Positions 11,801 to 63,937 of a stretch of DNA of 64,000 bases are shown here, piece by piece. The stretch spans positions 744,001 to 808,000 of the forward strand of contig CAUYUJ010000001.1 in assembly GCA_963575745.1 (NCBI GenBank), given 5' to 3'. The translations under genes were made by a program, and so were the position numbers. The stretch comes from Prorocentrum cordatum. Lineage: Eukaryota. Below the pieces are notes generated by a model that did no database searches, was not told where the DNA came from, and saw only the letters and a list, made by a program, of their open reading frames with translations. Within the stretch, counting starts at the first letter, position 1; every line of letters begins with the position of its first letter.

Positions 11801-11924
11801 GTTTAACACGAAACAAACACAAACAACAATGCGCACGAAAAAATGAAAAGACGCAGCGGCCCAGCGAAAACACGCAATTATTATCATATACGTCCCGCCC
11901 ACGATCAAGAGTCGCAACGACCCT

Positions 11925-14900
11925 GTGGGGAGCTTGCCGAAGGGCGCCGAGCTTGTCCAGCTGTTCGCCTGCGCCTGGCTGCTGTGGGAGGGCGGCGCGC
12001 GCCTCCCCGCGCTGGGCGCCACTCACGTGCATCGGCACTGCAGGGGGTCGGCCGTCAGCAACGGTGCGATCATCAAGGTGTCCTCCTACTCCTCCGCCTA
12101 CTCCGAGGTCTTCGCGGGCGCTCTGGGGCTAGCATGGTACCGGGCCCTCCGCGATCGCTTCGGCGGGCGGGCTTCAGGAGCCTTCGTCGAGTTCGCGGAC
12201 TCCGACTTCGCGCGCGGCGAGCGGGAGGCTTTCGAGGTGCCGGACGTCCTCGGGGCGATCACCAGCATGCGGGCTCCGGCTTCTGAGCAGGCATGCTCCA
12301 TCGGGCGCGTGGCACGCGCCCCGGAGCGCGGCGCTGCAGCCTTCGACGCGGAGGTGGCGGACGGGCGCAAGCTGGAGGACGCCGACATCGCCATCAGGGA
12401 GGAGTACGCCGCGAAGGTGCGGGGCTGCGAGCCTGAGGCGGGGAGCGAGCCGTTCGAGCTGTCCAAGTCGCTTCGTGCCCACATCATCGGGGATCAGTGG
12501 AAGGATGAGGATCTCGGGCCTATCTGCATGCAGCTTCGCGCCGAGTCTGGCGCCGGCGATAGCCCCGAGGCGCAGCGTCTCGGCGAGGACTTCGCGCTCG
12601 AGCAGTTCGCGACCGTGGGCCCAGGGGAGCAGCGCTGGCTGCTAGTCCTCCCTGCGTCGGGCGGACCGGGCTCGGGCATATCGTGGAGGCGCTTCATCTT
12701 CCTCCGTGTTCATGCTGGTCCGTCGGGGGGCCACAAGACGGTGGTCGCCACTCGTGAGTGCGCCCGGCGGCTGGTGGTCTGGCCGGGGCTCGCGGCGGAC
12801 ATCGAGAAGTGGTGCGCTAGCTGTTGGGCCTGCCTCCGATTCAGGAAGCAGACTACGAAGGTTCAGGCCAGCTTCATCGTGGCACGGCACCGGCTTCCAT
12901 TTCATCATGTGGTCATCGACGTGGAGGGCCGCATCACCCCCCCCGACGTCGACGGGTTCGCGTACGTGCTGACCTACATCTGTGTGACGACGGGGGCCCC
13001 CCTTCTCGAGCCGCTCAAGCACCTGCAGCACTCCGAGGTTCGTCGCGCCTTCTTTCGATGCGCGACTCGGGCCAAGACCTGGCCGATGCTGGTGAGTTCG
13101 GATCGTGGCAAGGAGTTCTGCAACGCTCTCATGGAAGAGCTCTGGGCGCTCCTCAACTTCGCAGGCCGCTTCGGCACGTCGTGGAGGCCCTGCGAGCAGG
13201 CGGACGCGGAGCGGTCCCACATCGAGTGCGCGAGGGAGATCGGCATCTTCCTGCACGACGTCTTTAAGTGTGCCCCCGGCCAGTGGGCCGAGCTGCTGCC
13301 GATCGTCGAGTTCGTGCTGTGGAACTCGCCCGGCAAGTCGGCGCTGTCGCCGAGGGACCTCTGCATGGGTTGGTCGTTGGCTTCGCCGCTGGAGAGGGAG
13401 CTGCTGCCGCTGGAGCCCGCCGTTCGCGAGGCAGTCTCCGACGTCGCGGCGGCACAGTTTGAGCAGTTCAGGCGTTTGCGGGAGGTTTACCTTCAGCATC
13501 GGGCTCGAGCCGGCCGGCGCAGGGCGGAGCTGGCTAATCGCACGAGATCGTCGAGGCGCCCGGAGGTCGGGGACATGGTGTTGTTCAAGGACCCGAAGCT
13601 CTCCAAGGCCGTGGCCGGGCACGCTCCGGGCCGCCGCCCTCTGCGCGGCCCCTTCGAGGTCCTCTCCACGAAGGGCAACGTCGCCACGTTGCGGGACCCC
13701 GAGACCCGGCAGGTGCTCAAGGATATCCACGGCGATTTCTTGATCGGCGTCCCGGGCTTGGTCGACGACACGGAGCGCATCGTGAAGTTGGAGGAGGACG
13801 ACGGCCGTGGCAGGGCCTCTGCCGGACAGCTGCTGGCAGCGCGGCTGGCCCCTGGAGGCGGCGAGGCCGCCGAGGCGCTGGCGCCGCGCGTGAAGGCGCG
13901 GATGCGAGAAGTGAAGGTCGGGCGGCTCGTGGCCTACCAGGGCGAGGAGGCGAAGCGCTGCCGGGTGGGCAAGGTGCTGAGCCTGGCCGAGGACCTGAGC
14001 AGCGTGACGGTGCACGTGTACCAGGCGGCGGTCGACGGACGGCTGCAGGTGGTCTGGACAGCGGCGTACGACCGCCAGGAGGGCGCGGACTTCCAGCGGC
14101 AGAGGGTCGAGACGCTGGAGGCGAAGCGGGTGCTGGGTGTCGTGGAGCTCAACAAGGGCGTGCTGAACCACGCGGCGGCGAGCAGACTGGCGCGGGCCGG
14201 CTGGCGGCTGGACGAGGGGACCGTCCGGCGCGGTGCCTTGGCGGCGGCGGCAGTGGTGCCGGCCGCGCCACGGCTCTCCGACCTCCCTTCGAGCCGCGTC
14301 ATCGCGCTCGTCGCAGCTTGCCGTCCGCTCGAGGAGCTCGACCTGAAGATCGGCGAGGTCCAGGCGTGGGCGCACGGCGTCCCCCTCTTCGTGGAGATCT
14401 TCGATGGGGTCGGGAGGCTCTCGCAGGCGGTCCAGAGCTTAGGCGCAGCCAACGCGGTGTGCAGCGTGGTGGCCGGCATCGACCTTAAGCGCAGGACGTA
14501 CGGGCAGTACTGGGACCTCAGCAGGGCCAAGGACCGCGCCCGGCTTCGCTACCTGCTCTTCGAGGTGCTGAGGCCGGCAGGAGCCCACTGGGCGCTCCCC
14601 TGTGCGAAGTGGAGCAGCCTCGGTGGCCACCAGCCCGACGCCAACGCGCACGCGCTAGCTTCTTTCACCATGGACGGCCTCGAGCACCTCGACGGCGCGG
14701 GCTGCCTGGCCTCCTTCGAGGGCCCTCGTGCGCACGCGCTGGTGGCGAGCGTGGAGTGGCAGCAACGGTTCGGGTCAGCCGAGGCGCCGCGCGGGCGCTG
14801 GCGGCACGTGCTCCCCGACGGCTGCATGTTCCACTGCAGGAGCCCGGACGAGGAGCCCTTGGCCATGCAGAAGCCGTACGTCATCGTGGGCAACTTCCCG

Positions 14901-17761
14901 CTGGACCTGCTGGACGTTCAGTGCCGCCGTGGAGCGCTGCGGCCTCTAGGGCGCGGCCTCGAAGGCGTCGAGGTCGCCTCCGTGGAGCAGCGCGGCGACG
15001 CCGGGAGCTCCATGATCGGAGCCGCGCGAGCGCTGGAGGGGCCTCGCATGCCCTGCGAGCCGGGACGCGCGGCCGCTCCGGCTGCTGGGGTGACTAGGTC
15101 GGTGGACAAGCTGAGCGACGCCGAGATGGCGGAAAGGAAGGCGCGGCGCGAGCCAGCGGCGGCGGCGGCGAAGAAGAAGTGGGCCGAGCTGGCCAAGAAG
15201 GGTGACTGGGACCAGGTTCGGATGCCCGGCAAGTGCTTCAGGTTTGCCGAGGTGAAGATTTCGCCGAGGCGCTCGGCGGAGTACAAGGCCAAGGTTCTGG
15301 AGGCGGTCGGGCTCGTCGGCGAGTGCGCGGGCTACAAGCACCTGGGCAGCCAGGAGCTGGAGGCGCTGAAGGAGATGATCAGCCTGAAGGCCGAGGCGTT
15401 CTGGGTGAAGGGCACCGCGCGGACGGTCATGCGCGGCTTCAAGCACGACGTGGTGACGACTGGCTTGCCTGCGCGCGGGCCGCCGATCCGCTTGAAGGGC
15501 CCGGAGTCTTCCATCGTCCGCGAGGAGCTCGAGGCGGGCGTGGAGCAGGGGCTGTACTCCCGGGGGACTTCGCCCTGGGGCAGCTGGGCCTTTCCGACCA
15601 AGGAGCACGCGAGCGGCCGAAGGCGTCGGACCGTCGTGGACTACCGGATGGTCAACCGCAGGATGGTGATGTTCGTGTACTACATCCGCCGGTGCCGAGA
15701 CGTCAAGGGCGAGCTGGTGGGCTGCGCCTTCATCTCTGGCATGGACGGCGCTCGCGGCTTCAACCTCCTGGTCAACACTGAGCACGCGAAGGAGGTCCTG
15801 GCTGTGCTGGCGGACTGCGGCTGCTACCTCCCCGAGGTGCTGCAGCTGGGGCCAGCGACGGGGCCCTTCGACTTCCAGTTCTGCACCGACGAGCTGTTCA
15901 CTGGCACTGGCCGCGGACGCTACGGATCGGTCTGGAAGAATTACATCGACGACTTCTGGGTCAGGACGGGGCAGTGGCTGAACGGTCGCGCCTACACCGA
16001 CCGAGAGTACGAGGAGATGCTGGCGGCGGCATCCCCCCCCCCGGCTGCCTCTCGCCCGCTGGGCGACTCGCTGGCAGCGGCCGGGTTCGCGGGGACTCGC
16101 AAGGCCAGCCAGAGCTACGACCACGCCAAGGGCATGCTCGTGGGGCTGTGCGTGGCGCAGTCGGCCACGGGAGCAGCGGCTATGGAGGGCGGCGGCGTTG
16201 CCTTGGCGAACGGCCTCCGCATGCTGGTGGTGGCTGCCGCGGTGCGCACGGCGTCCTTGGTGGATGAGGGGCTGCGCGCGGGCGTGCAGCTGACGCGGGA
16301 CATCTTCGAGGCGGCCGGCGACCTGGTCCAGAGCGTCTCCTGGAACCTCAGCGGGCTCATCCACGAGGTGTGCGAGGGGGCGGTCCTGGTGGTGCGCGTC
16401 CTGGTCGTCGTGCAGTGCTGCTACGCTCTTTACTGCCTGCGCTCGTGGGTGGCTTGCCGTGCGCAGCGGGCGGCGCTGGAGCGCGCCGCCACCGCCGGCG
16501 AGGCGGCTCAGCGCGGACTCACGTCCAGCGCGCGAACCTGCGAGGCCGGCGACGGGCCCGCCTTCGGCCGCGAGCCGATGGCCAGAGCGGCAGCCGCTGG
16601 CAGGAGCCCGAGCGGGGCCATCTCGTCAGCAGATGGCGCCGCCAGCCCTGTGGTGGCGCTGTGGCGCGAGGCGGAGTTCGAGACCCCCCTGATCGGGGCG
16701 GCGGCACGCCCCCGAGCGGAGGTCCTCCAGATCCAGAGGAGCGCAGCTGTGGCACTGCGGGACCTGGAGCATTCGGACCGCCAGCGCACCGCGCGCGCGC
16801 GCGCGACCTGGCCGCCTGCGGCGCGGTGGTGTCCGCGAAGCTGGTGGAGGCTGCGCGCAGCACGGCGGCGAAGGACGCGGGCGACCTGTGCGAGTTCGAG
16901 GTTGAGGTGGCCGGCAGCCGCGGCGTGCGGTATGATGTGCGACTTCGCGCCGGACGCTTGGCTGCAGCGTTGCCCCCCGCATCGTGCACCTGCGCGGACT
17001 TCGTCAGCGGCGTTGGCGCCCCCTGCAAGCACATTGGGGCGGCCTGGTGCTGCGCGGTGGACGGCAACTTCAGCGAGCTGGTGGAGCTGGCGCTTGCGGC
17101 TGGCCGCAAGGAAGGAGCTGCCGCTGGACCTCAGCGACGCGCAGCCCTGGCGCCGAGCGACTCCCTGGGCCTCGCGGGGGCCGTGCGGGAGCTCCGCGAC
17201 TCGGAGGCCGAGGTCGTTCGCCTGCGCGAGGAGGTCCAGCAGCTGAAGGCGCAGCTGGGGGTGGCCTCCAGGCGCGGAGCCGTGACCGAGTTCCTCTCAG
17301 CGTCGGAGACGCTGGCGGCTTGGGCGCGGGCTTGCGGCGAGGCCGAGAGCTACGTGCACGTTGCGTGTTTCACCTTCGACCAGCCGGGCGTGGTGAACTA
17401 TCTGGAGGCGGCTCGAGCTCGAGGTCTCACCGTCCGTTTGGTGTTCAGCGGCCGTGACAAGGCCTTGACCAACAACCAGGGACCGCGCCTGCAGCGGCTG
17501 CGAGCCTGTGGGTGCGAGGTGCGCGCGCACAAGGGCTCGCGGCTGCACGCAAAGGTGATGATGACAGAGCGCGAGATCGCGCTGGGCAGCTGCAACTTCA
17601 CGACTGCCAGCTTGGGCAACGCGGAGCGCGGAGCGTCGTTGCAGGAGCTGTCCGAGGAGGCGGTGCTCGAGCAGAAGGAGTGGTTCGAGCAGCTGTTCGA
17701 GGCGGCGGCGCCCTTCAAGGACGGGATCGGCGAGGTGGTGCCTCCGTCGCCGGCCCGGTGA
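11925..17761 (+). CDS. Retroelement polyprotein INT-SH3-DNMT-RT-TM-SWIM-PLD (frameshift at 16791-16805)
   Basis: ORFs 11925..17246 and 16370..17761 fuse into 1944 aa (...QRTARAR|DLAACGAVVSAK...) if one GC unit is removed from the (GC)n run. Confidence 0.8.
12640..13750 (+). other. Gypsy-type integrase (HHCC Zn finger, DD35E core, GPY/F)
   Basis: VHAGPSGGH...WPGLAADIEKWCASCWAC; VIDVEG, SSDRGKEF and AERSH with exactly 35 residues between D and E; VGDMVL...RGPFEV. Confidence 0.92.
14381..14930 (+). other. C5-cytosine DNA methyltransferase-like domain
   Basis: FVEIFDGVG (motif I FxGxG), GID/WDL, ALPC (catalytic PC), FEGP (motif VI variant), DGCMF...QKP (motif VIII-like). Motifs IX/X not recognised. 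Confidence 0.7.
15390..15970 (+). other. Ty3/Gypsy-type reverse transcriptase, fingers/palm only
   Basis: HDVVT...GLYSRGTSPWGS...RTVVDYRMVN...FISGMDGARGF...LQLGPATGPFDFQ...NYIDD (YIDD at 15942-15953). Confidence 0.9.
16806..17060 (+). other. SWIM zinc finger
   Basis: VEVAGSRGVRYDVRL...SCTCADFVSGVGAPCKHIGA = CxC-x10-CxH with the usual upstream V.GS..Y.V strands. Confidence 0.85.
17281..17761 (+). other. Phospholipase-D-superfamily (Nuc/Zucchini-like) single-HKD nuclease domain
   Basis: VHVACFTFDQPGVVNYLEAARARGLTVRLV...LHAKVMMTE...LGSCNFT...NAE; HxK(x4)E and GSxN. Confidence 0.85.
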
Positions 17762-17773
17762 GGGCGCCGCGAG

Positions 17774-17983
17774 GCGCTGGAGGTCAGCTGGGCGAGAGGC
17801 CTAGCGGCCGTGGCGCCGGGACCGCGAGGCGCTGGTGGCCAGCTGGGCGAGAGGCCTAGTGGCCGTGGCGCCGAGGGCGAGGCGGCGCTGGAGGCCAGCT
17901 GGGCGAGAGGCCTAGCGGCCGTGGCGCCGAGGGCGAGCAGCGCTGGAGGCAGCTAGGGCGAGGCCCAGCAGCCGTGGCGCTGA
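17774..17983. repeat. ~55-bp tandem repeat, 4 copies
   Basis: GCGCTGGAGGCCAGCTGGGCGAGAGGCCTAGCGGCCGTGGCGCCG units immediately after the PLD stop codon. Confidence 0.9.
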
Positions 17984-18430
17984 GATGGCAAGAGCGTGGC
18001 ATTTTGCTACGCCGTCGACGCCCGGCAGCGCCGGGAGCTATGAGCGACTGCATGACGCCGAGTTCGGCGACTTCGAGGAGTTCATCAACTTCAATTTTGT
18101 GGAGGTGCACGTCGCGGTGGACGTGCCGGAGCGCCTGTGCCGCGGAGTGGTGTCCCGCTCGAGGAGAGGGGCACGTGAGGAGCGGCAAGGGCGCACAGGC
18201 GGCGGTGTGCAGGCCGGCGGCGATGACGGCCCTGGTGGCGACGGCTGCTTGCCCCGCGCTGCCGCGTGGCTCAAGGAGAAAGGGCCCCTCCTCCCCCTCC
18301 TCAGAGGCGCGGGGGAGGCTTGGGGGGCCCGCCTGGGTTCGAGGGCCCGCAGGGGCCCATAGGGCCCGGGGGCGGCACCAGGAGGCCGCTCCCGAGGCCC
18401 TGAGGGGCCGAGGCTCCAGGTGAGCCTCAG

Positions 18431-19046
<616 letters not shown>

Positions 19047-19189
19047 AATTTGCATCATACTAGTAACAATAGTAGTAGTAGTAGCACTAACAACCATCAT
19101 CATCCCAACAGGTCGTAATAGTAGCCGTAATCATACGAATAATATAAACAGCAATAATAAAGATTATATTGTTAATAATAATAAGATGT

Positions 19190-31300: not shown

Positions 31301-34300
31301 GTGCGCGCCGCCAAGTATTGGCGGGGGGAGGTAAGGACGCGTGTCGGGGAGGATCAGCCCTGGAGCCGAACTCCCCCTAGTCCGTCTCCAGCCCCAGCTC
31401 ACCCAGGAAGGTCGGTTGGGCTCCAGACCTCTGGAGGTCCGCCTCATGACAAAGATCATGACGTTTGGGGTCTGGTTGTTCCGCTATTCCTGTGGCCTTC
31501 TTGGGGCGTTTCGTCGCCACGGATCCTGGCCAGCACGCGCCCCTGGCCTGGGGCCGCAGCTTACGCGCATCCACCGCCTCGGGGACCTCTAGTAGCGTTT
31601 TTTTACTCCCGGGCGATGGCGGGCGTTACCCAAGGGGAGAAGGGAGGGGCGGGGGGGCGGTAACGTTACGTGTCGCGCCGGCGCCGCCTGGGAATGCTCA
31701 GGAATGAGCCAGGACAACGCGGAGGTCAGCACGAGTCGTGACGTTACCTTACCTTTGGTGGCCAAGGCTGGTAACGCTTGCTATCGCGAAACACTGAGGG
31801 AACAAAGAAGGCCCTTCCTATCTCTCAGAGCTCCATGCGGTAGACGTGTACATGTAGATTTTCGGGCCTTGGAGGGCCCAAAGATGTCCACGCCCGCTGT
31901 CTCCTGGGCTCCTGGGACATGGGTTCCCGCGCCAGCGGGCCTGTGAAAGCTCCGGCCTGGGATCGGGAGAGGTGCGCGGAGCAGCGGCAGCGGTACCGCC
32001 TTTCGGCGGCGCGCCGAGGGTGGAAGTGAGGAGGGGGCAGGCCTTTTCAGAAGGCGGCGCGGCTTCTCAGAAGCCCTCCACCCTTCAGGCGAAGAGAGAG
32101 CCTCTGAGAAGCCCTTCTGGGCCTTCGGAGAAGGCCCGCCCCCCGTGCCCGAAGAGGGAAAGGCTCTGCACGGAGAAGCTCGGCCGAGTTCACCCTGGCC
32201 GAGTTGCTCCCCGCCGAGCGTACAGTTGCTGCCCTCTGCCCTCCCCACGGGCGCATCCGCCGAGTCTCGTCCCCCACGAGGCGGCGCTCGTCCTCTCGGA
32301 GCGGGTGCTGGGCCGTGCGGACGGTGCCGGCGGCGCCGCCTGCGGCGCGGGTGCGGGCGTGGGCACGTCGCAGCTGGTTCCGCTGCTGCGGCTGGCGGCG
32401 GCGGCTGTCGCTGGGGAGGCGGTCGCAGACCCAGAGGCCGACGCCGCAGCCAGGCCCCCCGCCTGCAGAGGGCAGCTGCACACACCGCCACCGTCCCTAG
32501 ATCTCCGGCGAGATGTGTTTCTATTCAATCCAGGCGTCCCGCGCCCTAAGAGCTCGTCTTTCAAGGGATTGGGTGGCGTCGCCTTCATCAGCACCATTGT
32601 GACGAACGCCTCACTCTTCCCAGCCAAGATTGCTGGCTTCTTGCGGGTTTGTCATCTGGAGCCTCCACCTTCTGTGGGCGATCTTTCTTGAGTCTAGAGA
32701 GCGCTGAAGGGTTTTGAGCAAAAGGGTCGGGAGCAAATTTGGGGGGCCTGCAGCGCAATAAAGTTCGCAGCTTTTCAGAATTACTCCTAGCTGGCTCAAT
32801 GGCATCGCCACTGTTCGGGACACGTATGCTCCCGCGGCCGCAGGGGTAGCAGGTGAATTCGCTGAGTCAATGATTTGCAAACTCGCAAGGATGGAACGCA
32901 CGCACACATTTTCCACGTGTCGGCCGACACGCCAACAAAGCTACAAACGCGCATCGCTTAGCTATCATTCGAGCCACAGACGATTGCAATTCGATCGTTT
33001 GCGGCCTCACCTTCGATGCAGACCTGCGGTTTCGACCCAGTCCAGCCCCTGGGAGCAACCTAGCTCCAACACTGCTTTCTGCACTCCATTATCCCCATGT
33101 TTCGTCCGCTGCTAGATTGAATCCGAACTTGTGGTTCATGACGCAAGTGCTCTCAGGCGATTACCCTACGAGCCTCCCGACCCTTTTGTTATAATTCCTC
33201 CTGCGCTGTTAAAACTGAATTCGACATGTCGGGCCCGTTTTGTTGGCCCCATGGGCTATCAGAAATTTACCCGCGGGGCGACAAGCTGGCCCCCGGGGTA
33301 ACTAGAGGTGTCGGGACTTCTCTGGGGCCGCGCGCTGAACACGTCTCTCGTCGTCGGATGTCCTGGTCTCCGCCTGGCGTGCAGATATCCTCCCGGTCGA
33401 GACCCGGATGTCCTTGGCACCATCCAGAGGGCCCGACTGGCGGCCCCTGGCCAGGGGCGGTGGTGGTGTACGGCTGTCGTGCTCCGAAAGCTGGGAGGGG
33501 CAGACAGGCACGCGCCTCGTCCTCCGAACTTTGCGTATTTGTTGTTCGCTTTTAGCTTCAACGGTCACGCGCTGGTGTGGGAGTCCGGGTGGCGTGGCAA
33601 CGGGGACAAGGCTTTCATCTCGCGGCGGCAGCGGGCGCTACCAGGGTGGCGGTGGGGGCGCCAGTAACGTCACGTTGGTGCCGTCTGGGAATGCTCAGGA
33701 ATAGCCACTTCCCCAACAGTGCCAGCTCGAATCATGACGTTACCAGCGGGAGCGGGGGTAGAGAGGACGAGGGCAGTAACGTGCACCACTGTAAATGTGT
33801 TCAACGATGCTTTCTGCTCTCCGCGACAGGTCGCCTCAGGCCCTGCCGTTTTTGGAAAGCCGGGAGGGGCGGAGAGTGCCGACGACTGGCGCAGCGTCTT
33901 CGATCTCTGCGGGGTACTCGTCCGCTTTGTGTACACAGGCCTGGGGTCTTTGGCTCTCCGAGACAGGTCGTCTCAGGCTGACGTCGTGGTGGGGTCGTCT
34001 GGCTCTCCGGGACAGGTCTCTCTCGTCGTGGCTGACTTGCTTCACCAGGCGACGCGCAGGTGCCGTAACGTCTGCTCTCCGCGACAGGTCGCCTCAGGCC
34101 CTGCTGCCGCCGCCGCTGCAGCTCGCGGGGCGCCTCCTGGGCCAGGAGGCCCCCCCGCGCCCCTGCAGCCCCGCGGCCTGCGCGGACGCCGCGAGGGAGC
34201 TCCGCCGCGTGGCCGAGGCGTCGTCGCCGTCGCCGTCGCCGTCGTCGTCCTCCTCCTCCTTCTCCTCCTCCTCCTCCTCCTCCTCCTCCTCCTCGTCCTC

Positions 34301-34318
34301 GTCCCTGTCGCCGTTGTC

Positions 34319-34371
<53 letters not shown>

Positions 34372-37300
34372 TCTTGTCGTCGTCGTCGTCGTCGTCGTCA
34401 TCGTCGTCGTCGTTTGTCATCGTCGTCGTCGTCGTCGGGCCCGCGGCCCAGGCGCTGGCGGGCGCCTGCGGGCGTGCGGGCGCGGCGCCCTGCGCCGAGG
34501 CGGCTTGCTGGGCCCTGGCGGGCCTCTGGCGGCGCATTTGCCGCCCGCAGGACGCTTGGCAGGCCCACGTACCCAGCGCCGTCAGCGACCCAGCGGGCGC
34601 TGCCGAGGGCTGGTGGGACGCCCTCGCGCAGATGCTGGAGTGCGCCTGCGCGCTGGCTGGGTGCCTCTCGCAGCTGCACTCCTCGCCGGGCGCCGCGGCG
34701 GCGTTGGCGGCCGCGGCGGCGGGCCCCCTGTGGGGTGCAGTGGAGCCACCGCCGCAGTTCGCTGCCGCGGCGGCCACGCCTGGGACCGCTGTGGCGGTGG
34801 CGGCTTGGAGGAGCGCAGCGAGCGCATTGGCGCCGTGGGCAGCGAGCATGGCCACGGATGGCTCCGCGGGGCGTGGGACTGCAGACGAAGGCGCGTCAGA
34901 GCATTGGCCGCGCGCCCTGGCCGCGTTGGCGGCGCCGGCGCTGCTGGCGAGCGGAGGGCCGGCCGACCTGCTAAGTGCGGGCCGCACTGTGCTGCTGGTG
35001 CCCGCGCAGGTCCTTCATACCACCGTCGGGCGGCTCCTCGAAGCCGCCTCGCTGGCGCACGGCCTGAGGGAACTGCTGGACGGGGCGAGCGCAGGGTCGG
35101 CCCTCTGCGCGGCAGCGGTGGCCCACGCCGCCCTGGGCGAGCGGGCGGGCGGCAACGGAGGAGATCTGGGAGAGTCCAGTCGCGAGGTGTTCTCGCGCGC
35201 ACTCGAGGATGCAATCGTGTCGAAAGAGGGGCTACCGGCAGCCATGCCTGCGCGTGCGGTGTTCCTCCTCGCGAGCGCGGTCGGCCACCGGGTCGAGCGC
35301 GGCGACTCGGGCGCGCGAGGGCGTTGGGATGGCGTCCGCGAGCGACTCTGCGAAGGGCTTGCGCCTGCACTGGGTCGCGTGACCCAAGCCGAGTGGTCCG
35401 CGTGGGGCGGGGAGGCGCTCGCGCCCATCGTTGCGAGTGGACTCAGATGGCTGCTCGCGGGGCGCACAGCCGCCCCAGGCGGCCTAGAGGAGCTCCGCCC
35501 GCAGGCGCTGGGCTGCTCGGAGGCCGCGGTGGCCCAGCTGGTGCCCAGTTGGTCCCAGCTCGCCTACTCCCTGAGTGGTGGCCCTGGCTGCGCGGCGCTG
35601 CTGGCTGCCGCGCCCTCGACGGAGTGGCTGGTGGAGGCCCTGCTGCGGTGCCTGTCGGACGCGCGAGCCCACGAGGCCCTCGGCCCGTTGGCGCTGCTGT
35701 CGTCGCTGGCGGACGGGGACCCGAGCTGCCCCGCGATGCTCGCGCGCCTCGGCGCGGGAGCCGCCGTGGCGCGCTGCCTGCAGCGCCTGTCCACTTGCGA
35801 GCAGGGGGATGCCGCCGCCCCCGACCCTCGAGCCTTCCACCTTGGCGCCAGGCTCGTGGCGACCGCGTCGGCGGAGCTGGAGGGCGGGAGCGCCCGCGAG
35901 ATGCTCGAACTCGTCATACAGGCCGTCGACCTCGGCGGGGCGAGCCTCTGCCGCGAGGCTGCCACAGGCACTGCGCACCTGGTGCGCGCGCTCGCCGCGC
36001 TCGCGCTCCGCGGCCAGGGCGGCGCGGCCCTGCGCGCGCTGTCGGCGGCGCCCTGGCTGCGCGGCGCCGTCGGGGCCAGCCTGCGGCAGCCCCTGGCGCA
36101 AGGGGCGGACGAGAGCGGCGGCGGTGTGGCAGAGGCGTCGTTCTTGCTGGTGACGGCCGTGCTCCTGGCGGACGAGGCGGCGAGCGAGAAGGGCAGCCAG
36201 GGCGGCGTCTCCCACCTCCTCGCCGAGGTCGGCGCAGGAGCGTGGCTGGCGGCGCTGGGCCCGCGCGCGAGCGGTCGGCTGCGGGCGTGCGGCTCGCTGG
36301 CCCTGGCCGCATGGCTCTGGCTGGGGGTCGGCGGCGGCGCCGCCTGCGAGGCCGCGTGGCCTGTCCCGCCGCTGCCATCGCTGCTGCTGGTGGCCGCCTC
36401 CAGCCTGGAGGTCAGAGGAGGAAGCGAGACGGATTTCGCTGCTCGTCCAGGAGAGTCCTCGCCGCCACGGCCGGATTCTCCTCGACACTCCGGCCAGAAG
36501 GCACACCAGGAGAGGCCCGGGGATCAGCGGCATCGGTATCTCCTCGTGCCCCCCACCAGGAGAGCAGCCTCGAGGGCGGCCAGGAGGCGAGCTGCGTGCG
36601 GGACGCCAGCTCCCTGCTCTCCCTCGCGGCGCTCTCCGCGCGGCAGTTCCCGCTGCGCTCGCGCGTCTATTGGCTGAACGTGCTGAGCTGGCGGCGGCCG
36701 GTTGCCGAGCAGCTGCTGCGGCCGCGGGGGCCTACGGAGGACGCGAGCACGGCCGTGCTGCTGCTGCTGGGGCTCCTGGTGCGCAGCAGGCCCCTGTGGC
36801 TCAGGGTGGACAGGACTCGAGGAGCAAGTCATGGCATAAGCATCAGTTGTCGCACGTGCGCGCTGATTTCTTGGATCGGCGCTGGAGCCCACCCCCACGG
36901 GCGCGCGGAGCGCGCCAGGGGCGGCGCCCGCCGCCAGGGGGCTCCGAGAGCTCATGCTGATGCCATGATTTGTTCCCCGAAGGACGCTGGCGCCTGTGGC
37001 CGCGCTGGCGACGGAGGTCTGGGCACGCCATTCCAAGACCCTCATCGCGTTGCGAAAAAATCTTGACGGAAGGTGTGTGATATTTTGCAACCTGTAGGGG
37101 CCCTCACCGGGCCTCGAGTCTATCAAGAAACGACTCAGAATGGGAAGCCGGTGCTTGGGAAGCGGGTTTATGCCTGTGAGGGTCCGCCATGAAACTGTCA
37201 CGACGTCGGGGGTTTGGGGACGCAGCGGCGACGCCGGCGCGGGCATTCACGGCGGAGCGCCCTCTGGGGCGAGTCTCGGGCCCCGCGGCCCACAGGAGAG

Positions 37301-38511
37301 GCCACGGCCTGGAGCTCATGCGGGAAATGGTGTCGGCGGCCTTTGGGGACATCCTAGGGCGGATGCCGTTCAGGGCTGAACGGTTCGCGTGGTGTCATCA
37401 GGGGCAACGATAGGGGGGATGGGATAGGCACGGGGGGTGATGCATCGACCCCCAATCGCCCATTGATCGCCGGTAGGGGTCTGACATAGCCCCACCCCGC
37501 CCAGGAATGTGCGGATTCGCTACCGGGGGCCCATCGCCGATCTATCGGCGATGTAGCGCCGATTCCAAGTCGATGTTTCCCCCCCCTGTGCCAGTCGCCC
37601 CCCCCATATCGTTGCCCCTCACGTCAGTCTACACCTTCACCGGCCCCCCCATATCGTTGCCCCCCCTGTGCCAGTCGCCCCGTGTCGTCAGAAGCCAAGC
37701 CGCCAGTCTACACCTTCACCGGTCCCGGCCAGGCCAGTCTTCGGCCCAGGAGGGCCGCGGAGACCAAAAACAGCGAAGAAAGCCAGGACCCACCTCCTCG
37801 TCAGGACCTGCTTGCTTTGTGGCGAAGCGCTCAGTGAGCGTTTCCGCGTTCGGGTCTGCGGCTGCGACCGCGCTGAGCGACCGCCAGCGCCGTGGCCAGA
37901 ATTACCCGAGACGTGCCCAACCCGATTGGCTTCTCGCACAAGTGGCAGCCCCCCAGGGAGGGATAGGGAGAGGAAGAAGGGGGGGGAAGGAGGAGGAGGA
38001 GGAGAAGGAGGAGGAGGAGGAGGAGGAGAAGGAGGAGATGGATGAAGACCAGCCGCGTGTCATCGAAAACGGGGACCCCACCAAAGGAAGGGTTGGGAAC
38101 AAGTTCACCCGCCCCCTGGAGAAGGCACAACGTTAGGGGGGAATAGGCTCAGGGGGGAACGCATCCAACCCCAATCGCCCACTGGTCGTCGAATAGGGAA
38201 CAGGGGCCCGATGGCCGACCCCGCCCAGGAGCGTGAGCATTTGCTATTGGGGGCATGTCGCCAATCTATCGGCGATGTATCGCCGATCCCAGATCCCCGA
38301 AGTCATGATTTTGTTCATGGCGTGGACCCCCAGAGGTCTGGACCCCTTCCCCAGGACTGGCTTCTCACCCAGAGTACTACAGTTATTCCCAGCCGTCCCG
38401 TGGTGTTGGGTCTTAGTTTTGAAGGGACAGCGCCTCAGTATCAACATCAACATCATCATCAGCATCATCATCCTCATCACCATCACCATCACCATCACCA
38501 TAATCATCATC

Positions 38512-38543
<32 letters not shown>

Positions 38544-38558
38544 CATCATCATCAGCAA

Positions 38559-38589
<31 letters not shown>

Positions 38590-38894
38590 TTCATCATCAC
38601 CATCACCATCACCATCACCATCATCATCATCATCATCATCATCATCACCATCACCATCACCATCATCATCATCATCATCATCATCGTCATCATCATTATC
38701 ACCATCATCATCATCACTATCACCATCACAATCAGCATCACCATCATCATCATGATGATCTGCCCCATCATCAGCATCATCACCATCATCAGCATCACCA
38801 CCATCTTAATAATCGTCAGGATCACCAGCATCACCAGCATAAGCATCATCAACAGCATCATCAGCATCATCATGATCATCAGCATAACCATTGC

Positions 38895-38950
<56 letters not shown>

Positions 38951-39006
38951 GTCATGCTCATCAGTACCATTGTCATCAGCAACATCAGCATCAACATCAG
39001 CATCGC

Positions 39007-39039
<33 letters not shown>

Positions 39040-40137
39040 TATCATCATCAGTACCATTATCATCATCAGCATCATCATCATCAGTATCATCATCAGCATC
39101 AGCATCATCAAGACCATTATCATCATCACCAGCATCAGTATCAGCATGTTCATCATCATCACCATCATCACCATCATCACCATCACCAGCATCATCATCA
39201 TCATCAGCATCAGCATCATCATCATCGTCAGCATCAGCATCGTCATCACCATCATCATCATCATCATCACCATCACCATCACCATCACCATCATCATCAG
39301 CAGCATCAGCATCATCATCAGCATCAGCATCAGCATCGGCATCATCATCATCGTCGTCAGCATCATCAGCATCATCATCGTCATCATCATCAGCATCATC
39401 ATCGTCATCATCATCACCATCCCATCATCCCATCATCTCATCCACGCGTCCCCCCATCGATTTCGGCACACCGCTCACGCATTTCGTGGCCCCGTAGGGA
39501 GCTCCACCGAAGGCCCAAGTGGCGGTCTCCACCTGCGCCCTCCTCATCCACCTCGAAACACCCTCACACGCTTCGTGGCCCCGTAGGGAGCTCCACCGAA
39601 GGCCCCAGTGGGAGGGTTCGCATGGCACTTCGGCACACCCCTCGCACGCTTTGTGGCCCCACAGGGCCCCAGTGGGAGGGTTCGCATGGCACCGCCGCCC
39701 CATTTCGGCATACCCCTCGCACGCTTTGTGGCCTCATCGGCAGCTCCACCTGAGGCCCCAGTGGGAGAGTTCGCATGGCACCGCCGCCCCATTTCGGCAC
39801 ACCCCTCACACGTTCCGTGGCCCCGCGGAGTGCTCCACCTAAGGCCCCAGTGGAAGGGTTCGCATGGCGCCGCCGCCCCATTTCGGCACACCCCTCACAC
39901 GCGTAGCAGCCCCGTCCCATCTCGGCACACCCCTCGCACGCTTCGTGGCCCCATGCGGAGATCCACCGAAGGCGATACTCACAACGACGCTACTCACAAC
40001 TGCGTATGGTTGGGTCCTTCGCCAGGGAAATTGATGACCCCGAGGCCCGGCAAAGGCACTAGGAGGCCGAAGACAGTGAAACTAGAATCTTCCGCTGCGA
40101 TTCTGTCTTCCCCCCTCCCTCCTGTGACGCCGCGGGA

Positions 40138-46100: not shown

Positions 46101-47386
46101 CACCATCGAGGCGGATTCCGAGCGGGTCCAGGCGACGGTGGAGGACATGCTGGAGCCCGTAAGCGTGGTCGACATCGACGGCTTACACCCCGATCGGGTC
46201 CCCGAGACGGAGGACGAGGTCAATGGCACCATCGAGGCGGACCCCGAGCGGGTCCAGGCGATGGTGGAGGACGTGTTGGAGCTTGTGAGCGAGGTCGGCT
46301 ACGACGGCGTAGGCTTCGATCGGGACTCCGAGGTCCTTTTGGGACGACGCTGAGGCTGGTTGAAGGGGCCCTGGGTGAGGTCGATGGCACCATCGAGGCG
46401 GACTCAGAGCGGTCCCAGGCGATGGTGGTGGACACGCTGGAGCCCGTGAGCGGTTTCGACAACGACGGCGTAGGCTTCGATCGGGCCTCCGAGACGGTGC
46501 AGGTCGGGACGACGATGACTGAAGGGACCTTTGGTGAGGTCAAGGACACCATCGAGGCGGATTCCATGCGGGTCCAGGCGACGATGGGGGACATGTTGGA
46601 GCCCGTGAGCGGGGTCGACAGCGGCTTGGATCGGGACTCCGAGATAGAGGAGGTCGGGACGACGCCGAGGCTGCCGACGGTGCCGCACACCTTCGAGGTC
46701 GCTAAGCAGGAGAGCGCCACGGAGAGCGAGGTGGAGCTCGGCAAGCAGCAGCGCCTTGGCTCCGTGATCAAGGCCAACCAGGAGGCCTACTCGCGGGCTG
46801 TCGCTGCGCGCGCCGCCCGCCTGGCCCAGTGGCGGCTCGCCACCGATGTGCTGGTGGGCGAGGTGCTGGAGGCCCCTGTCGGGGCGGCGGAGGTGCAGGT
46901 CGAGGGCTGCTCCGAGGTGCCGTCCGTCGCGGCCCAGGAGGTCCAGGGGTTCGATGAGGCGACTGTGGCGCTGAGCGAGTCCCGCTACCAGAGGGCGAAG
47001 GCCACGGGGCTCGGCGGGGTGCACTGGGACAGCTTCGCGCCGCGCTTGGCCGCGTTGACGCTCCTGGCCGCAGTTCCACCCGAGGGCTGAGTGGGCGGCA
47101 GCTACGCGTAGTTGCTGGGCTCGGCTCGAAAAACTTGTTATTTCTGGGGACGGCCTGGGGGCTGCCTCGGTTCGGGCCGCGGGGTCCTGGGTGCGGCCCT
47201 GGTGGCTTCGTTCGGTTGCCCGTGGGTCTCCGTCCCCGCGGGGGTGGTGGGGCCTTGGCCACGGTTCTCCCCTCTTGGGAGGTCCGTCGCTGTGGTGCAC
47301 CCACCCGTCTGGAGAAGCCCTTGGGCTCCTCGTCGCCACTCCCGCTCGCGAGCCGCAGCGTCGACGGGTGGACTTTTGTCCGCCCA

Positions 47387-47421
<35 letters not shown>

Positions 47422-47599
47422 CCTCTTCCCTCCTCCTCCTCCTCCTCCTCCTCCTCCTCCTCCTCCTCCTCCTCCTCCTCCTCCTCCTCCTCCTCCTCCT
47501 CCTCCTCCTCCTCCTCTTTCTCTTTCTCCTCCTCCTCCTCCTCCTCCTCCTCCTCGTCCTCCCCTCCTCCTCCTCTCCTCCTCCTCCTCCTCCTCCCTC

Positions 47600-47632
<33 letters not shown>

Positions 47633-47946
47633 TCCTCCTCCTCCTCCTCCTCCTCCTCCTCCTCCTCCTCCTCCTCCCCCTCCTCCTCCTCCCTCCTCCT
47701 CCTCCTCCTCCCTCCTCCTCCTCCTCCTCCTCCTCCTCCTCCTCCTCCTCTCCTCCTCCCCTCCTCCTCCTCCTCCTCCTCCTCCTCCTCCTCCTCCTCC
47801 TCCTCCTCTCCTCCTCCTCCTCCTCCTCCTCCTCCTCCTCCTCCTCCTCCTCCTCCTCCTCCTCCTCCTCCTCCTCCTCCTCCTCCCCTCCTCCTCCTCC
47901 TCCCTCTCCTCCTCCTCCTCCCTCTCCTCCTCCCTCTCCTCCTCCT

Positions 47947-47977
<31 letters not shown>

Positions 47978-50900
47978 TCCTCCTCCTCCCCTTCTCCTCC
48001 TTCCCCTCCTTCTCCTCCTCCTCCCCCCTCCTCCTCCTCCTCCTCCTCCTGCTCCTCCTTCTCCCTCCTCTCTCCTCCCTCCTCCTCCTCCTCCTCCTCC
48101 TCCTCCTCCTCCTCATCCTCCTCCTCCTCCTCCTCCTCCTCCTCCTCCTTCTCCTCCCCCTCCCCCCTCTCCTACCTATGGTGTTGGTGGTGGTGGTGGG
48201 AAATCGGCCCATGGTTCCTTGCGCCCGACCCGGCTCTCTTCCCACCCCTCGTTTCCTGCCTTCCGTTCCCCTCCTGAAGTCGCTCGCCGCCCTGGCTGCG
48301 GACGTGGCGCTGTGGCGGTCGGCGCGCGCAGAGGCGGGCCTCCCACCCCAAAGCTCCTCGCTCGCTTGCTCCGGTTCCTCCTCGTCGCTCTTCTCTTTGT
48401 CATCCTGCCTCCCCCTCCTCGTCTTCAGTCCCCCCTTCGCCTTGTGCTCCTCCTGCGTCCTCCTCCATGCCTTCGCTGTCCTCCCGCCCATGCCCACCTC
48501 CTGCGATCTTGCCCTCCCATCCGTTTCCGTCCTCCTCCTCCATGTCCTCGTGATCCCCCTCATGTAGTTTTCGCCCGCACGCTGCGCGTCCTCATCTCCT
48601 TCTCCGTCGCATCATTATGTTCCCTCGCCTTTCTTCTCTTCTTACGACCTTCTGACGTTAGAGTTCCTCTTTCGTTGTCCCTCCTTGTTCCTCCTGATGT
48701 TTCCTTCTTGCTTCTCTTTCAGTTTCCCTCCGTCCTCCTGTTTCTCTAATCATTTTCCCTTTTCACCAATCTTCCTGATTATCGACTTCTCATTTTCCCT
48801 CCGAACGTCTCTCCGCCTTTCTTCCCTTTTACCGCCGCGTCGACGTCGTCCCCGTCCCTCCTCCTCCTCCTCCTCCTCCTCCTCCTCCTCCTTCTCCTTC
48901 TCCTCCTCTTCCAGCGACGACGACGAGAAAGAGGAGAACGAGGGGAAGGTTACGTAAGAGACAGCAGGACACGTGTGAGTGGGACAGAAATAGGAGGAGG
49001 AGGAGGAGGAGGAGGAGGAGGAGGAGGAGGAGGAGGAGGAGGACGGAGAGACGCCGGCTTGCAGTCCTGCTCATAGACACCCTGTGTCTCCGACGCGCCA
49101 TCGTAGGTTGCAAGCACATGTTTGCAAGACGCACAGGAGTGATGCGCGCAGTAAGGGATGCCCACCCTGTGTGGAGGTGCGCACGGGACTGGAATTCCAA
49201 GAACAAGTCGGGCGCAGCCGACCGCTGTGCAGCAAGTCGCAGGCGGTGCGGGGACACTGAGACAGGCAAAAACACCAGAAGGCCAGACCCGGGAGGGAGA
49301 GGGGCGGAGGGAAGAGGGCCAGCGGCAGGCCACAGGGCGCCGCGTAAGGACCCGGTAGGCCGGGAATCAGACAGAGGTGTAGAGAGCAGAGTGCAGCTGG
49401 AGAGGGGATTTAAGCTAACGCCAGAGGGCAAGCGGACCAGAAAGACGGGTGGTTGGGGGATCTGGCGGCACCTCCCACCGCACAGAGTGCATCTGCTGCG
49501 GCTGCTCCGAAGAAATTGGTGCAGCAGTGCTCGGCGCTGTTACAGCGTGCGAGAACAGACGAGTGCCAACTGGCTCGATTGACAGCCAACGAGTAGCGAT
49601 GGGATGGAAGACAGCGGACAAACGCCAGCAGTGGCAACCCAGGCATGTGCCCGAGACCTTGATATAGCACCCCGCAGAGGCGGATAAGAGTGAGGGGGCG
49701 GTGGGGACGTCAGCAGTCTGCGAGACTCTGGAGAAGCCCACCGCAGGCGCCAATGTTTCACAAATTATACAACGAGCCCGCCGCAGGCGCCGATTGTTTC
49801 GTTAAACCAATGCGGGTAGGTCGCGGGTGGGTCTCAAGTTGGTCGCGGGTGGGTTGCAAATTGGTCGCGGGTGGGTCGCGGGTGGGTCGCGGGGTGGGTC
49901 GCGGGTGGCTCGCAAGTGGGTCGCGGGTGGGTCGCGGGTGGGTCGCGGATGGGTCGCGGGGTGGGTCGCGGGTGGGTCGCGGGGTGGGTCGCGGGTGCGT
50001 CGCGGGGTGGGTCGCGGGTGGGTCGCGGGGTAGGTCGTGGGTGGGTGCAGGGTGGGTCGCGGGTGGGGTCGCGGAATGGGTCGCGGGGTGGGTCGCGGGG
50101 TGGTTCGCGGGGTGGGTTGCGGGTGCGTCGCGGGTGGGACGACGACAACAAACAAACAACGCAACAAGCAGAATCCTTACCACGGATCCCCACTTCAGCC
50201 ACGCACCCAGGGACAATGAATGACCGTTCGGCCCGCGGATGGGACGACGACAGCAAACAAACAACGCAACAAGCAGAATCCTCACCACTGATCCCCACTT
50301 CAGCCACGCGCCCAGGGACAATGAATGACTGTTCGGCCCCTCTACTCTGACCAAGCCCAGTAGCCGATTGCCGTAGATAGCACGCTGGGGAGTGCTATGG
50401 ATGGAAGTGGGCTCGTAGCGCCATAGCTCAGAGAGGGACCATGGTAGTGTAGGACGTCGCCGCGCCGACGAAGATGGGGTGCCATCGCCTGTGCGCGAGA
50501 AGCACAAACGTCCGATCGCGACCGATTTCCCGTATACACGCGCCACGCAGCACGCGCCATTTCTTCTGCCGCGGCGCTGGAGCAACTGCCGGTGATATGC
50601 ACGAGACTGGGACGCGGGCGCACACACCGCACAAAGACCGCAAAGGGTAGTTGCGACGCGTGCGCTCGTGCCGTGAGCAGTGTGCTTCCGGGCGAGTTGC
50701 AGACTCGGGCGAGCAGTGCCGGAGAAGCGGCACGCCGGAGACGACGAGGCCAGGCGGCCGCAGGTCGGCACGAGGGAAGGGGAGCCTTGCAGGCAGGGGT
50801 CCTGGATTCCGGGGCGCTCCCCGGGATCGGGCCGAGCGAAAGGGGGAGGTGGGGAGGGTGGGGGGGCTACGAAACCTGCTGCATCATGCAGCTGGTTTCG

Positions 50901-63049: not shown

Positions 63050-63937
63050 CTAGCTTGCCGAAGGACCCACCTATATGAAGTTGTGCGTACCGCAATCGAC
63101 AATATCTTTTTCGTTGGCACTCCCTATGGGGCCACGAAACGTGTGAGGGGTGTGCCGAAATGGGTGCAGGGGACGCATGTGGACGGTAGCACTGGGGCCT
63201 TCGGTAGAGCTCCCTATGTGGCCACGAAACGTGCGAGGGGTGTGCCGAAATTGATGCGGGAGATGCATGTGAACGGTGGCACTGGGGCTTTCGGTGTCCC
63301 TATCAGGCCACGAAACGTGTGAGGGGTGTGCCGGAATGGGTGCGGGGGACGCATGTGGACGGTGACGCTGGTGCCTTCGGTAAAGCTCCCTGGGTGTGGG
63401 TGGCGCATGTGGACGGTGGCACGGGGCCTTCGGTGGAGCTCCCAATGGGGCCACGAAACGTGCGAGGGGTGTGCCGAAATGGGTGCGGAGGACGCATGTG
63501 GACGGTAGCACTGGGGCCTTCGGTGGAGCTCCCGATGGGGCCACGAAATTTGTGAGGGGTGTGCCGAAATTGATGCGGGGGACGCACGCGGACGATGACA
63601 TGTGGGCCTTCGGTGGAGCTCCCGATGGGGCCGCGACTCGTGTGAGGGGTGTGCCGGAAGGGGTGCAGAGGACGCATGTGGACGGTGGCACGGGGGCGTT
63701 CGGTGGACCTCTCTATGGGGCCACGAAACGTTTGAGGGGTGTGCCGAAGTGGGTGCGGGGGACGCCTGTGGACGGTGGCACTGGGGCCTTCGGTGGAGCT
63801 CCTTGTGTGGCCACGAAACATATGAGGGGTGGCCCGAAATGGGTGCGAGGGACGCATGTGGAAGGTAGCATGTGGGCCTTCGGTGGAGCTCCCTACGGTG
63901 CCACGAAACGTGTGAGGGGTGTGACGAAGACGATGGC

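Follow-up and report, generated by a model that had tools for sequence, protein, structure and literature searches.

The 64,000-nucleotide stretch of a Prorocentrum cordatum contig analysed here (CAUYUJ010000001.1, positions 744,001 to 808,000; 'the window' below) contains a copy of a retroelement whose family very probably carries a permuted pol polyprotein, with the reverse transcriptase (RT) cut after its YxDD motif. Downstream of the integrase comes the front half of the RT, and in fuller relatives the back half, together with RNase H, is found on its upstream side. The two pieces stand in this order, complement each other exactly and are both conserved, and the element contains no second RT. 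Probably the best explanation is that an RT was cut after the YxDD hairpin and its halves swapped around the integrase, putatively to refold into one RT; that the two pieces work as a single two-piece enzyme is a reading we somewhat favour. The window itself is GC-rich eukaryotic DNA, dense in simple repeats, and the proteins closest to the element are gene models of the dinoflagellate P. cordatum. What it holds is a dead copy (5'-truncated and with one frameshift) of a dinoflagellate Ty3/Gypsy-related retroelement, comprising a pre-integrase region, integrase, middle domain, RT front half, linker, SWIM zinc finger and PLD-like domain, all on the forward strand.

The RT front half downstream of the integrase

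An open frame of 1799 codons (11847-17246) encodes the integrase (12687-13196, with an H2C2 zinc finger at 12687-12848 and a DDE core at 12897-13196) and, downstream of it, an RT fingers/palm module, in the order that a previous reading of the DNA from its letters alone (the sequence-only reading) had noticed. This front half, comprising a pre-RT stretch, the fingers and palm motifs A, B and C, occupies approximately 15294-15959; its 'NYIDDFWVRTG' begins at amino acid 1365 (nucleotide 15939), with YIDD at 15942-15953, which puts the RT motifs about 2.7 kb past the integrase. The latter was recognized by Pfam Integrase_H2C2 (amino acids 281-334; E 5.5e-11; 42.9 bits against a cut-off of 25.5) and by rve (351-450; E 4.2e-6; 27.4 bits, under the cut-off of 32.6), and in phmmer searches it matched Gypsy integrases at E 1e-12 to 1e-15. 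Integrase residues 652-885 of the Gypsy-type pol P0164 aligned by phmmer to amino acids 285-526 of the window protein and to 1261-1468 of the related protein P0166.

Pfam RVT_1 gave no match to the window RT even at E ≤ 10, and the best hit of a PDB sequence search was the cauliflower mosaic virus (CaMV) RT at only E 0.48. Because RVT_1 misses the window copy, the assignment as RT rests on phmmer, an AlphaFold model and fold matches. By phmmer, residues 145/146-314 of P0164 (ending in 'ylddil') correspond to window amino acids 1196-1371, with domain E-values of 2.7e-5 to 1e-12 depending on the partner. The model of amino acids 1150-1468, built from 40 aligned family sequences, had a mean predicted local distance difference test score (pLDDT) of 67.5 and was good to about residue 270. 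Its top Foldseek matches in the PDB were the RTs of CaMV (E 3.8e-8) and Ty3 (1.4e-7), and it also matched foamy-virus protease-RT and the RTs of human immunodeficiency virus type 1 (HIV-1) and Moloney murine leukaemia virus. With VIA-align, Ty3 RT was superposed at Z 14.7 over 190 residues (root mean square deviation 4.4; model 2-225 on chain 15-219), CaMV RT at Z 14.5 and HIV-1 RT at Z of about 13 over residues 4-191 or 4-200. The canonical order of motifs is kept, from A (its Asp at model residue 151) through B to C (YIDD, 217-220). The Gypsy-type motifs that had been read by eye as running through 'NYIDDFWVRTG' are thus borne out by the phmmer matches to Gypsy pols and the fold match to Ty3 and CaMV RT.

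All fold alignments end at model residue 225-240, just past YIDD. The YMDD of HIV-1 RT we take to be residues 183-186; since the HIV-1 match spans 4-191 or 4-200, the modelled front half comprises fingers and palm through motif C and no further. A profile of motifs D and E, thumb and RNase H found nothing downstream of the front half in the window protein, in agreement with the earlier statement that no thumb or RNase H follows YIDD. The same reading had the RT stopping right after YIDD; this describes where the fold matches end, and it needs correcting in that about 50 conserved residues follow (15960-16118, to 'TRKASQSY'), including a degenerate motif-D-like stretch, 'AAGFAGTRKAS'. This tail is kept in relatives (P0006 and P0166 included) at 47-62% identity, and beyond it both conservation and model confidence collapse. 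The RT module therefore does not end at YIDD, as the tail's ratio of nonsynonymous to synonymous substitution (dN/dS) of 0.078 also indicates. The frame then runs on, as had been noticed, into a poorly conserved hydrophobic and helical linker (16119-16795; pLDDT below 50) that gave no match to the back-half profile.

Selection on the front half was assessed in two ways. Among 40 representatives at 30-62% identity, the motif-A aspartate was present in 39 of 39 covered rows and the two aspartates of YxDD in 30 and 31 of 35. Against the metagenome locus L001, which shares 83% nucleotide and 92% protein identity with window 15182-16315, dN/dS (Nei-Gojobori) was 0.075 for the front half (256 codons, dS 0.67), 0.078 for the 49-codon tail and 0.36 for the linker.

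The RT back half upstream of the integrase in fuller relatives

No Gag, protease, RT back half or RNase H is present in the 5'-truncated window copy. A predicted protein found with the integrase part, P0157 (2194 amino acids, about 95-96% identical in protein), carries its integrase at 1930-2164 and, upstream of it, a region (968-1232) that phmmer aligns to residues 317-572 of P0164. On P0164, Pfam places RVT_1 at 201-360, RT_RNaseH_2 at 427-523 and RT_RNaseH at 452-554; by this placement, P0157 968-1232 appears to correspond to the last 45 RVT_1 residues (motifs D and E), the thumb and RNase H, and the family cut lies inside the RT domain, since RVT_1 spans 201-360. Front and back pieces abut on P0164 within two residues (145/146-314 and 316/317-575).

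A back-half search with P0157 returned four more proteins, so that P0164 316/317-575 is matched by P0157 968-1232, P0165 1134-1399, P0166 257-500, P0167 1448-1718 and P0168 334-612. P0165 (3612 amino acids), from a third P. cordatum locus, is a single gene model from Gag to PLD; the proteins of the three P. cordatum loci share 94-98% identity. P0166 (2457 amino acids, 48% identity) holds the back half (257-500), the integrase (1261-1468) and the front half (2166-2318 with P0164 as query) in one uninterrupted frame that fills its whole 7372-nucleotide contig with no introns, and gene-model splicing therefore cannot explain the permuted order. The circularly permuted pol that the sequence-only reading had ventured is thus found within one open frame. 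P0167 (2002 amino acids, on a 6569-nucleotide contig) carries a Gag-like region, CCCH fingers, a protease-like region, the back half and RNase H (Pfam RT_RNaseH, 39.3 bits against a cut-off of 24.8); P0168 (2105 amino acids) has the back half upstream of the integrase; and P0107 runs from the integrase C-terminus through the middle domain into the front half. The full order of back half with RNase H, integrase and front half is present in P0165 and P0166, and P0157 joined to P0003, P0168 and P0107 are consistent with it. It is N-terminal to the integrase, where they had been predicted, that RT domains 6-7, thumb and RNase H occur in the fuller copies (P0157 with P0003, P0165, P0166, P0167 and P0168). 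Despite 36-48% identity among the five back-half sequences, K996, L1009-G1010 and, in RNase H, D1118, E1161 and D1186 are invariant in all five; on the alignment, we presume these to be catalytic.

The contig encoding P0166 is labelled by its source as a Phycisphaerae metagenome-assembled genome, yet encodes a eukaryote-type retroelement pol, and is probably a misbinned eukaryotic contig. Upstream of the integrase, P0157 also contains about 650 conserved residues (approximately 1240-1900) between RNase H and integrase, with an invariant 'GxGxGxxVAA...PRVxE' and a Cys-rich 'CACGR...RCxQC'. A beta-rich segment, dUTPase-like by eye and with no Pfam match (P0157 approximately 800-945; P0166 approximately 60-215), sits between the protease-like motif and the back half, in the place where ordinary pols have the RT fingers and palm.

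Two hidden Markov models (HMMs), one of the front half (275 columns) and one of the back half with RNase H (P0157 940-1240), were run over 168 proteins. The first gave one match, downstream of the integrase, in each fuller family protein reaching past the middle domain (e.g. P0166 2119-2391; P0165 2903-3063, in two parts around a gap) and none in P0157, P0167 or P0168. The second matched 17 of the 168, namely five upstream-part family proteins and 12 ordinary pols. Both Gypsy-order pols (P0159, P0162, P0163 and P0164) and integrase-first pols (P0158, P0160 and P0161) show the front-half match followed by the back-half match, the two abutting or overlapping except in P0159, where they are some 90 residues apart; front-half E-values against Gypsy pols were 1e-17 to 1e-29. 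In P0163 (657-873 and 833-1082), P0164 and P0153 the tail of the front half and the head of the back half overlap at the motif-D region. The family set, defined at E < 1e-10, numbered 145 proteins, 81 of which extend past YxDD, 17 with at least 250 residues beyond it. In none of these 17 was a back half found downstream of the front half, the match in P0165 lying upstream. A complete RT and RNase H after YIDD in relatives, which the sequence-only reading had named as the case that would overturn it, was accordingly sought and not found.

Two other accounts were considered. The first is that the window copy alone lost the rest of its RT and RNase H through an in-frame deletion or fusion, which we regard as extremely improbable: nothing was found in its favour, all relatives reaching past YxDD end the RT module alike, L001 at 83% nucleotide identity included, and a private deletion was rejected on this ground. 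The second is that the order is an artefact of nested or tandem insertions of two elements, chimeric gene models or misassembly. Such things do occur here, as the long gene models P0063, P0119 and P0153 are plainly concatenated copies and P0005 fuses a DIRS-like element to a member of this family. Nested conventional elements would, however, leave the two halves side by side in at least one case, and no such case was found; moreover, independent sequences at 36-98% identity share their junctions, in which a unique domain precedes the back half and the tail, linker and SWIM-PLD follow the front half. We therefore consider an artefact very unlikely, and a tandem array of ordinary elements was rejected because front and back halves are adjacent in no family protein. 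In P0005, the DIRS-like part (RT, RNase H-like and tyrosine-recombinase motifs by eye) is accompanied by a degraded family member, the whole probably being a nested insertion that the gene caller joined into one model.

Family extent, downstream modules and the window copy

The window RT was compared by phmmer with 1.84 billion representatives; 1124 matched at E ≤ 1e-3, of which 215 reached 1e-10 and 58 reached 1e-30. The 215 are clusters at 50% identity, so the family is not rare, and its matches mostly end at query residue 314-321. Pfam was run on 20 long matches: in seven the front half is followed by a Tpt1/KptA-type domain and in one by SWIM and PLD; nine show only a partial RVT_1 ending at profile position 158-162 of 205 (eight starting at 3-7 and the fragment P0144 at 65); and six are ordinary Gypsy-type pols at 26-28% identity. 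A metagenome scan with the RT region returned two short contigs only, L001 and L002, without the upstream part, while a scan with the integrase region found no relative, and a degenerate DNA motif for 'LQLGPxxGPFDFQ' had no match in the genome-contig or viral-contig collections.

In one public run (X2), 1396 contig pieces with 85-99% likeness fall on 12111-16330; the RNA status of the run is a guess, and we make no claim of expression from it. Cover is dense from the integrase to the front half and drops more than 10-fold past 16330, which fits a conserved core with a swappable tail and suggests that most related copies in the organism of this run carry a different tail. A seawater metatranscriptome run contributed two contigs over 15933-16139, from which again no expression claim is drawn.

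Between the integrase and the RT front half lies the middle domain (14388-14903; 'FVEIFDG...HWALPCAKW...VIVGNF'), which is kept in P0003, P0166, P0168, P0107, P0058, P0007 and P0030. It matched no Pfam, NCBIfam or PDB sequence, and its single-sequence AlphaFold model (pLDDT 34.9) was unusable. Its 'FxEIFxG' and 'HWALPCAKW' are reminiscent of motifs I and IV of C5-methyltransferases, an unsupported impression. Downstream of the linker, a SWIM zinc finger (16934-17044; Pfam SWIM, E 3.4e-4, 20.5 bits against a cut-off of 19.6) is followed at the C-terminus of pol by a PLD-like (HKD) nuclease-type domain (17336-17695; PLDc_2, E 1.8e-13, 50.9 bits against 27), which is present too in P0003, P0006, P0026 and L001. 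The best NCBIfam likenesses in this region (16934-17695), all weak and below their cut-offs, are to the defence nucleases DISARM DrmC and DpdK and to NucT. The Tpt1/KptA-type RNA 2'-phosphotransferase (Pfam PTS_2-RNA, E 2e-5 to 3e-15) of the seven long matches mentioned above (P0010, P0012, P0015, P0019, P0027, P0058 and P0144) occupies the place of SWIM and PLD, and no report of its pairing with an RT front half was found in the literature searched.

By tblastn against P0157 and P0003, the window copy extends from 11934 to about 17875, with weaker similarity onward to 18164: nucleotides 11934-13406 correspond to P0157 1680-2170 (95% identity), 13374-16802 to P0003 27-1169 (96%) and 16793-17875 to P0003 1166-1523 (90%). 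The copy is 5'-truncated, because similarity to P0157 begins only at its residue 1680. A single frameshift at about 16796-16802, within a (CG)n run, places SWIM and PLD in the next frame (16268-17761); in the match to P0003, frame 1 stops at 16802 and frame 2 starts at 16796. Only in the window copy does it part the frames of RT and SWIM-PLD; P0003 and L001 read from RT to SWIM in a single frame. Given its (CG)n context, the frameshift could be a mutation by slippage or else an error of sequencing or assembly.

Elsewhere in the window, a Pfam scan of 10 other long open reading frames found no family. One of these long frames (33668-37066; 1132 codons, local GC about 0.75, no Pfam family) may be a composition artefact or a gene. 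Much of the window consists of trinucleotide arrays and 89-90-nucleotide tandem repeats (18311-19100, 38312-39300, 47335-48050, 53091-54274 and 63104-63926), and repeat arrays border the retroelement copy on both sides.

A proposed two-piece RT and its relation to known systems

RT is the defining enzyme of all retroelements, and the order of pol domains is a classification character that separates Gypsy from Copia and sets apart Gmr1-like elements. To our knowledge, RT has always been described as one contiguous unit of fingers, palm and thumb. In fuller members of the permuted family, the polyprotein runs from a Gag-like region, CCCH fingers and a protease-like region through the RT back half (motifs D and E, thumb), RNase H, the stretch of about 650 residues and the integrase to the middle domain, the RT front half (fingers, palm motifs A-B-C), the conserved tail, a variable linker and SWIM with PLD, the last two being replaced in sister lineages by a Tpt1/KptA-like domain. 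The front half would supply the catalytic aspartate triad, and the back half the motif-D lysine, primer grip, thumb and RNase H, the pieces joining either within one polyprotein or as two chains after cleavage by the protease. The arrangement may have arisen as the third cyclic rotation of three blocks, namely front half (N), back half with RNase H (C) and integrase (I): Gypsy elements have N-C-I, integrase-first elements I-N-C and the dinoflagellate family C-I-N. A duplicated or dimeric intermediate seems likely because both pieces keep a motif-D-like overlap, and the free C-terminal end of the front half might have become a docking site for swappable SWIM-PLD nuclease or Tpt1/KptA-like enzymes. 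To this scheme in its entirety (an obligate two-piece RT with halves more than 1100 residues apart in reverse order, a third pol rotation through a dimeric or duplicated intermediate, and a free end that docks exchangeable enzymes) we give even credence.

Several points weigh against a two-piece RT. The window lacks the back half, for which predicted proteins from other loci are the only source, and the putative identity of this half as RT is read from phmmer and HMM similarities to ordinary pols at E 1e-8 to 1e-15, with RT_RNaseH above its cut-off only in P0167. The link between P0157 and P0003 relies only on their equal 461-kb contigs and their overlap with the window copy. Upstream of the P0157 integrase, as in P0165 and P0167, Pfam recognizes CCCH fingers only, the Gag-like stretch and the protease-like motif ('LLDGGA' or 'LIDTGA') being read by eye. 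The argument from overlap is soft, since the motif-D-like lysine of the tail is present in only three of 19 covered rows. Finally, no long terminal repeats (LTRs) were seen, the repeat search of the window displaying only low-complexity families around the copy, whose 5' end is missing; as neither LTRs nor target-site duplications were found, the copies could have spread by segmental duplication.

This last point belongs to the view that the family is non-autonomous or extinct and its halves are relics of a rearranged element, with copies multiplied by segmental duplication or by an RT supplied from other elements. The damage to individual copies agrees with that view: the window copy is truncated and frameshifted, the front half of P0165 has a 108-residue gap and L001 has a frameshift before PLD. 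Against it stand a dN/dS of 0.075 at a dS of 0.67, catalytic residues kept across the 40 representatives, the same order in environmental contigs at 36-48% identity and the 215 clusters at E ≤ 1e-10, and we consider this explanation quite unlikely.

A stronger competitor accepts the order and denies the two-piece enzyme. Here a thumb-less front half would work with its tail, the middle domain or a host factor, and the back half would persist only as a scaffold for RNase H. The strong constraint on the tail of the front half and the constant position of the middle domain directly upstream of that half speak for it, as do retroviral RT connection domains, in which polymerase-adjacent folds persist without catalysis. 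However, the lysine of motif D and the 'LG' of motif E do not vary among the five sequences, at 36-48% identity, and neither would be needed by an RNase H scaffold; the cut coincides exactly with the point at which the two pieces meet in ordinary RTs; and we know of no RT that works without primer grip and thumb. We judge a thumb-less enzyme improbable, if less so than a relic, and retain the two-piece RT as the preferred reading.

An RT divided inside the palm yet under strong purifying selection would amount to a split polymerase made by nature, of use for the study of RT folding and for the engineering of split RTs. The permuted family suggests that pol orders are linked by cyclic rotation. 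Its poor recognition by standard tools, exemplified by RVT_1, may explain why dinoflagellate retroelements are under-annotated, and where protist genomes show 'RT-only' or 'RNase H-only' fragments, these may be two parts of a single enzyme. In the literature searched, with subscription journals mostly outside its scope, no retrotransposon was found to be described as having a split or permuted RT; the order is new as far as that literature shows, which is not proof of novelty.

Retrotransposons with accessory enzymes offer a first comparison. In DNMT- and DAM-bearing elements, as far as the available portions of two accounts describe them, domains were added to long interspersed nuclear elements, DIRS or LTR elements with an ordinary RT, and the same portions say nothing of a divided RT (PMC5890265; bioRxiv 10.64898/2026.05.21.726589). 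The present family resembles these in having non-canonical enzymes in pol and, on the same portions of text, in coming from dinoflagellates, which are rich in such elements.

With Ty3/Gypsy elements the likeness lies in the parts. Gypsy-type pols are the closest match for each of three pieces, namely the front half, the back half with RNase H, and the H2C2/DDE integrase; the front-half fold is nearest to Ty3 and CaMV RT; and upstream, relatives carry zinc fingers along with what reads by eye as a Gag-like region and a protease-like motif. Their assembly differs: the dinoflagellate family has the order C-I-N where Gypsy has N-C-I (protease-RT-RNase H-integrase), its RT domain is not contiguous and its fingers are CCCH instead of CCHC. 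It has extra modules (the stretch of about 650 residues, the middle domain, and SWIM with PLD or the Tpt1-like domain) and a very long coding region, reaching 3612 amino acids in P0165.

Permuted palms are known from the RNA-dependent RNA polymerases of birnaviruses and permutotetraviruses, in which motif C stands ahead of A and B within one compact domain. Both systems have palm elements out of canonical linear order, whereas the dinoflagellate family keeps A-B-C and has motifs D and E and the thumb displaced upstream by over 1100 residues, RNase H and integrase lying in between.

The integrase-first pols P0158, P0160 and P0161, which we take to be Gmr1-like, share with the family an integrase upstream of the RT fingers and palm. 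In these three, however, the RT halves are adjacent and followed by RNase H, whereas in the dinoflagellate family the back half and RNase H lie upstream of the integrase. The family thus departs from two defining features of Gypsy elements (a contiguous RT and RNase H, and the protease-RT-RNase H-integrase order) and from one of integrase-first elements.

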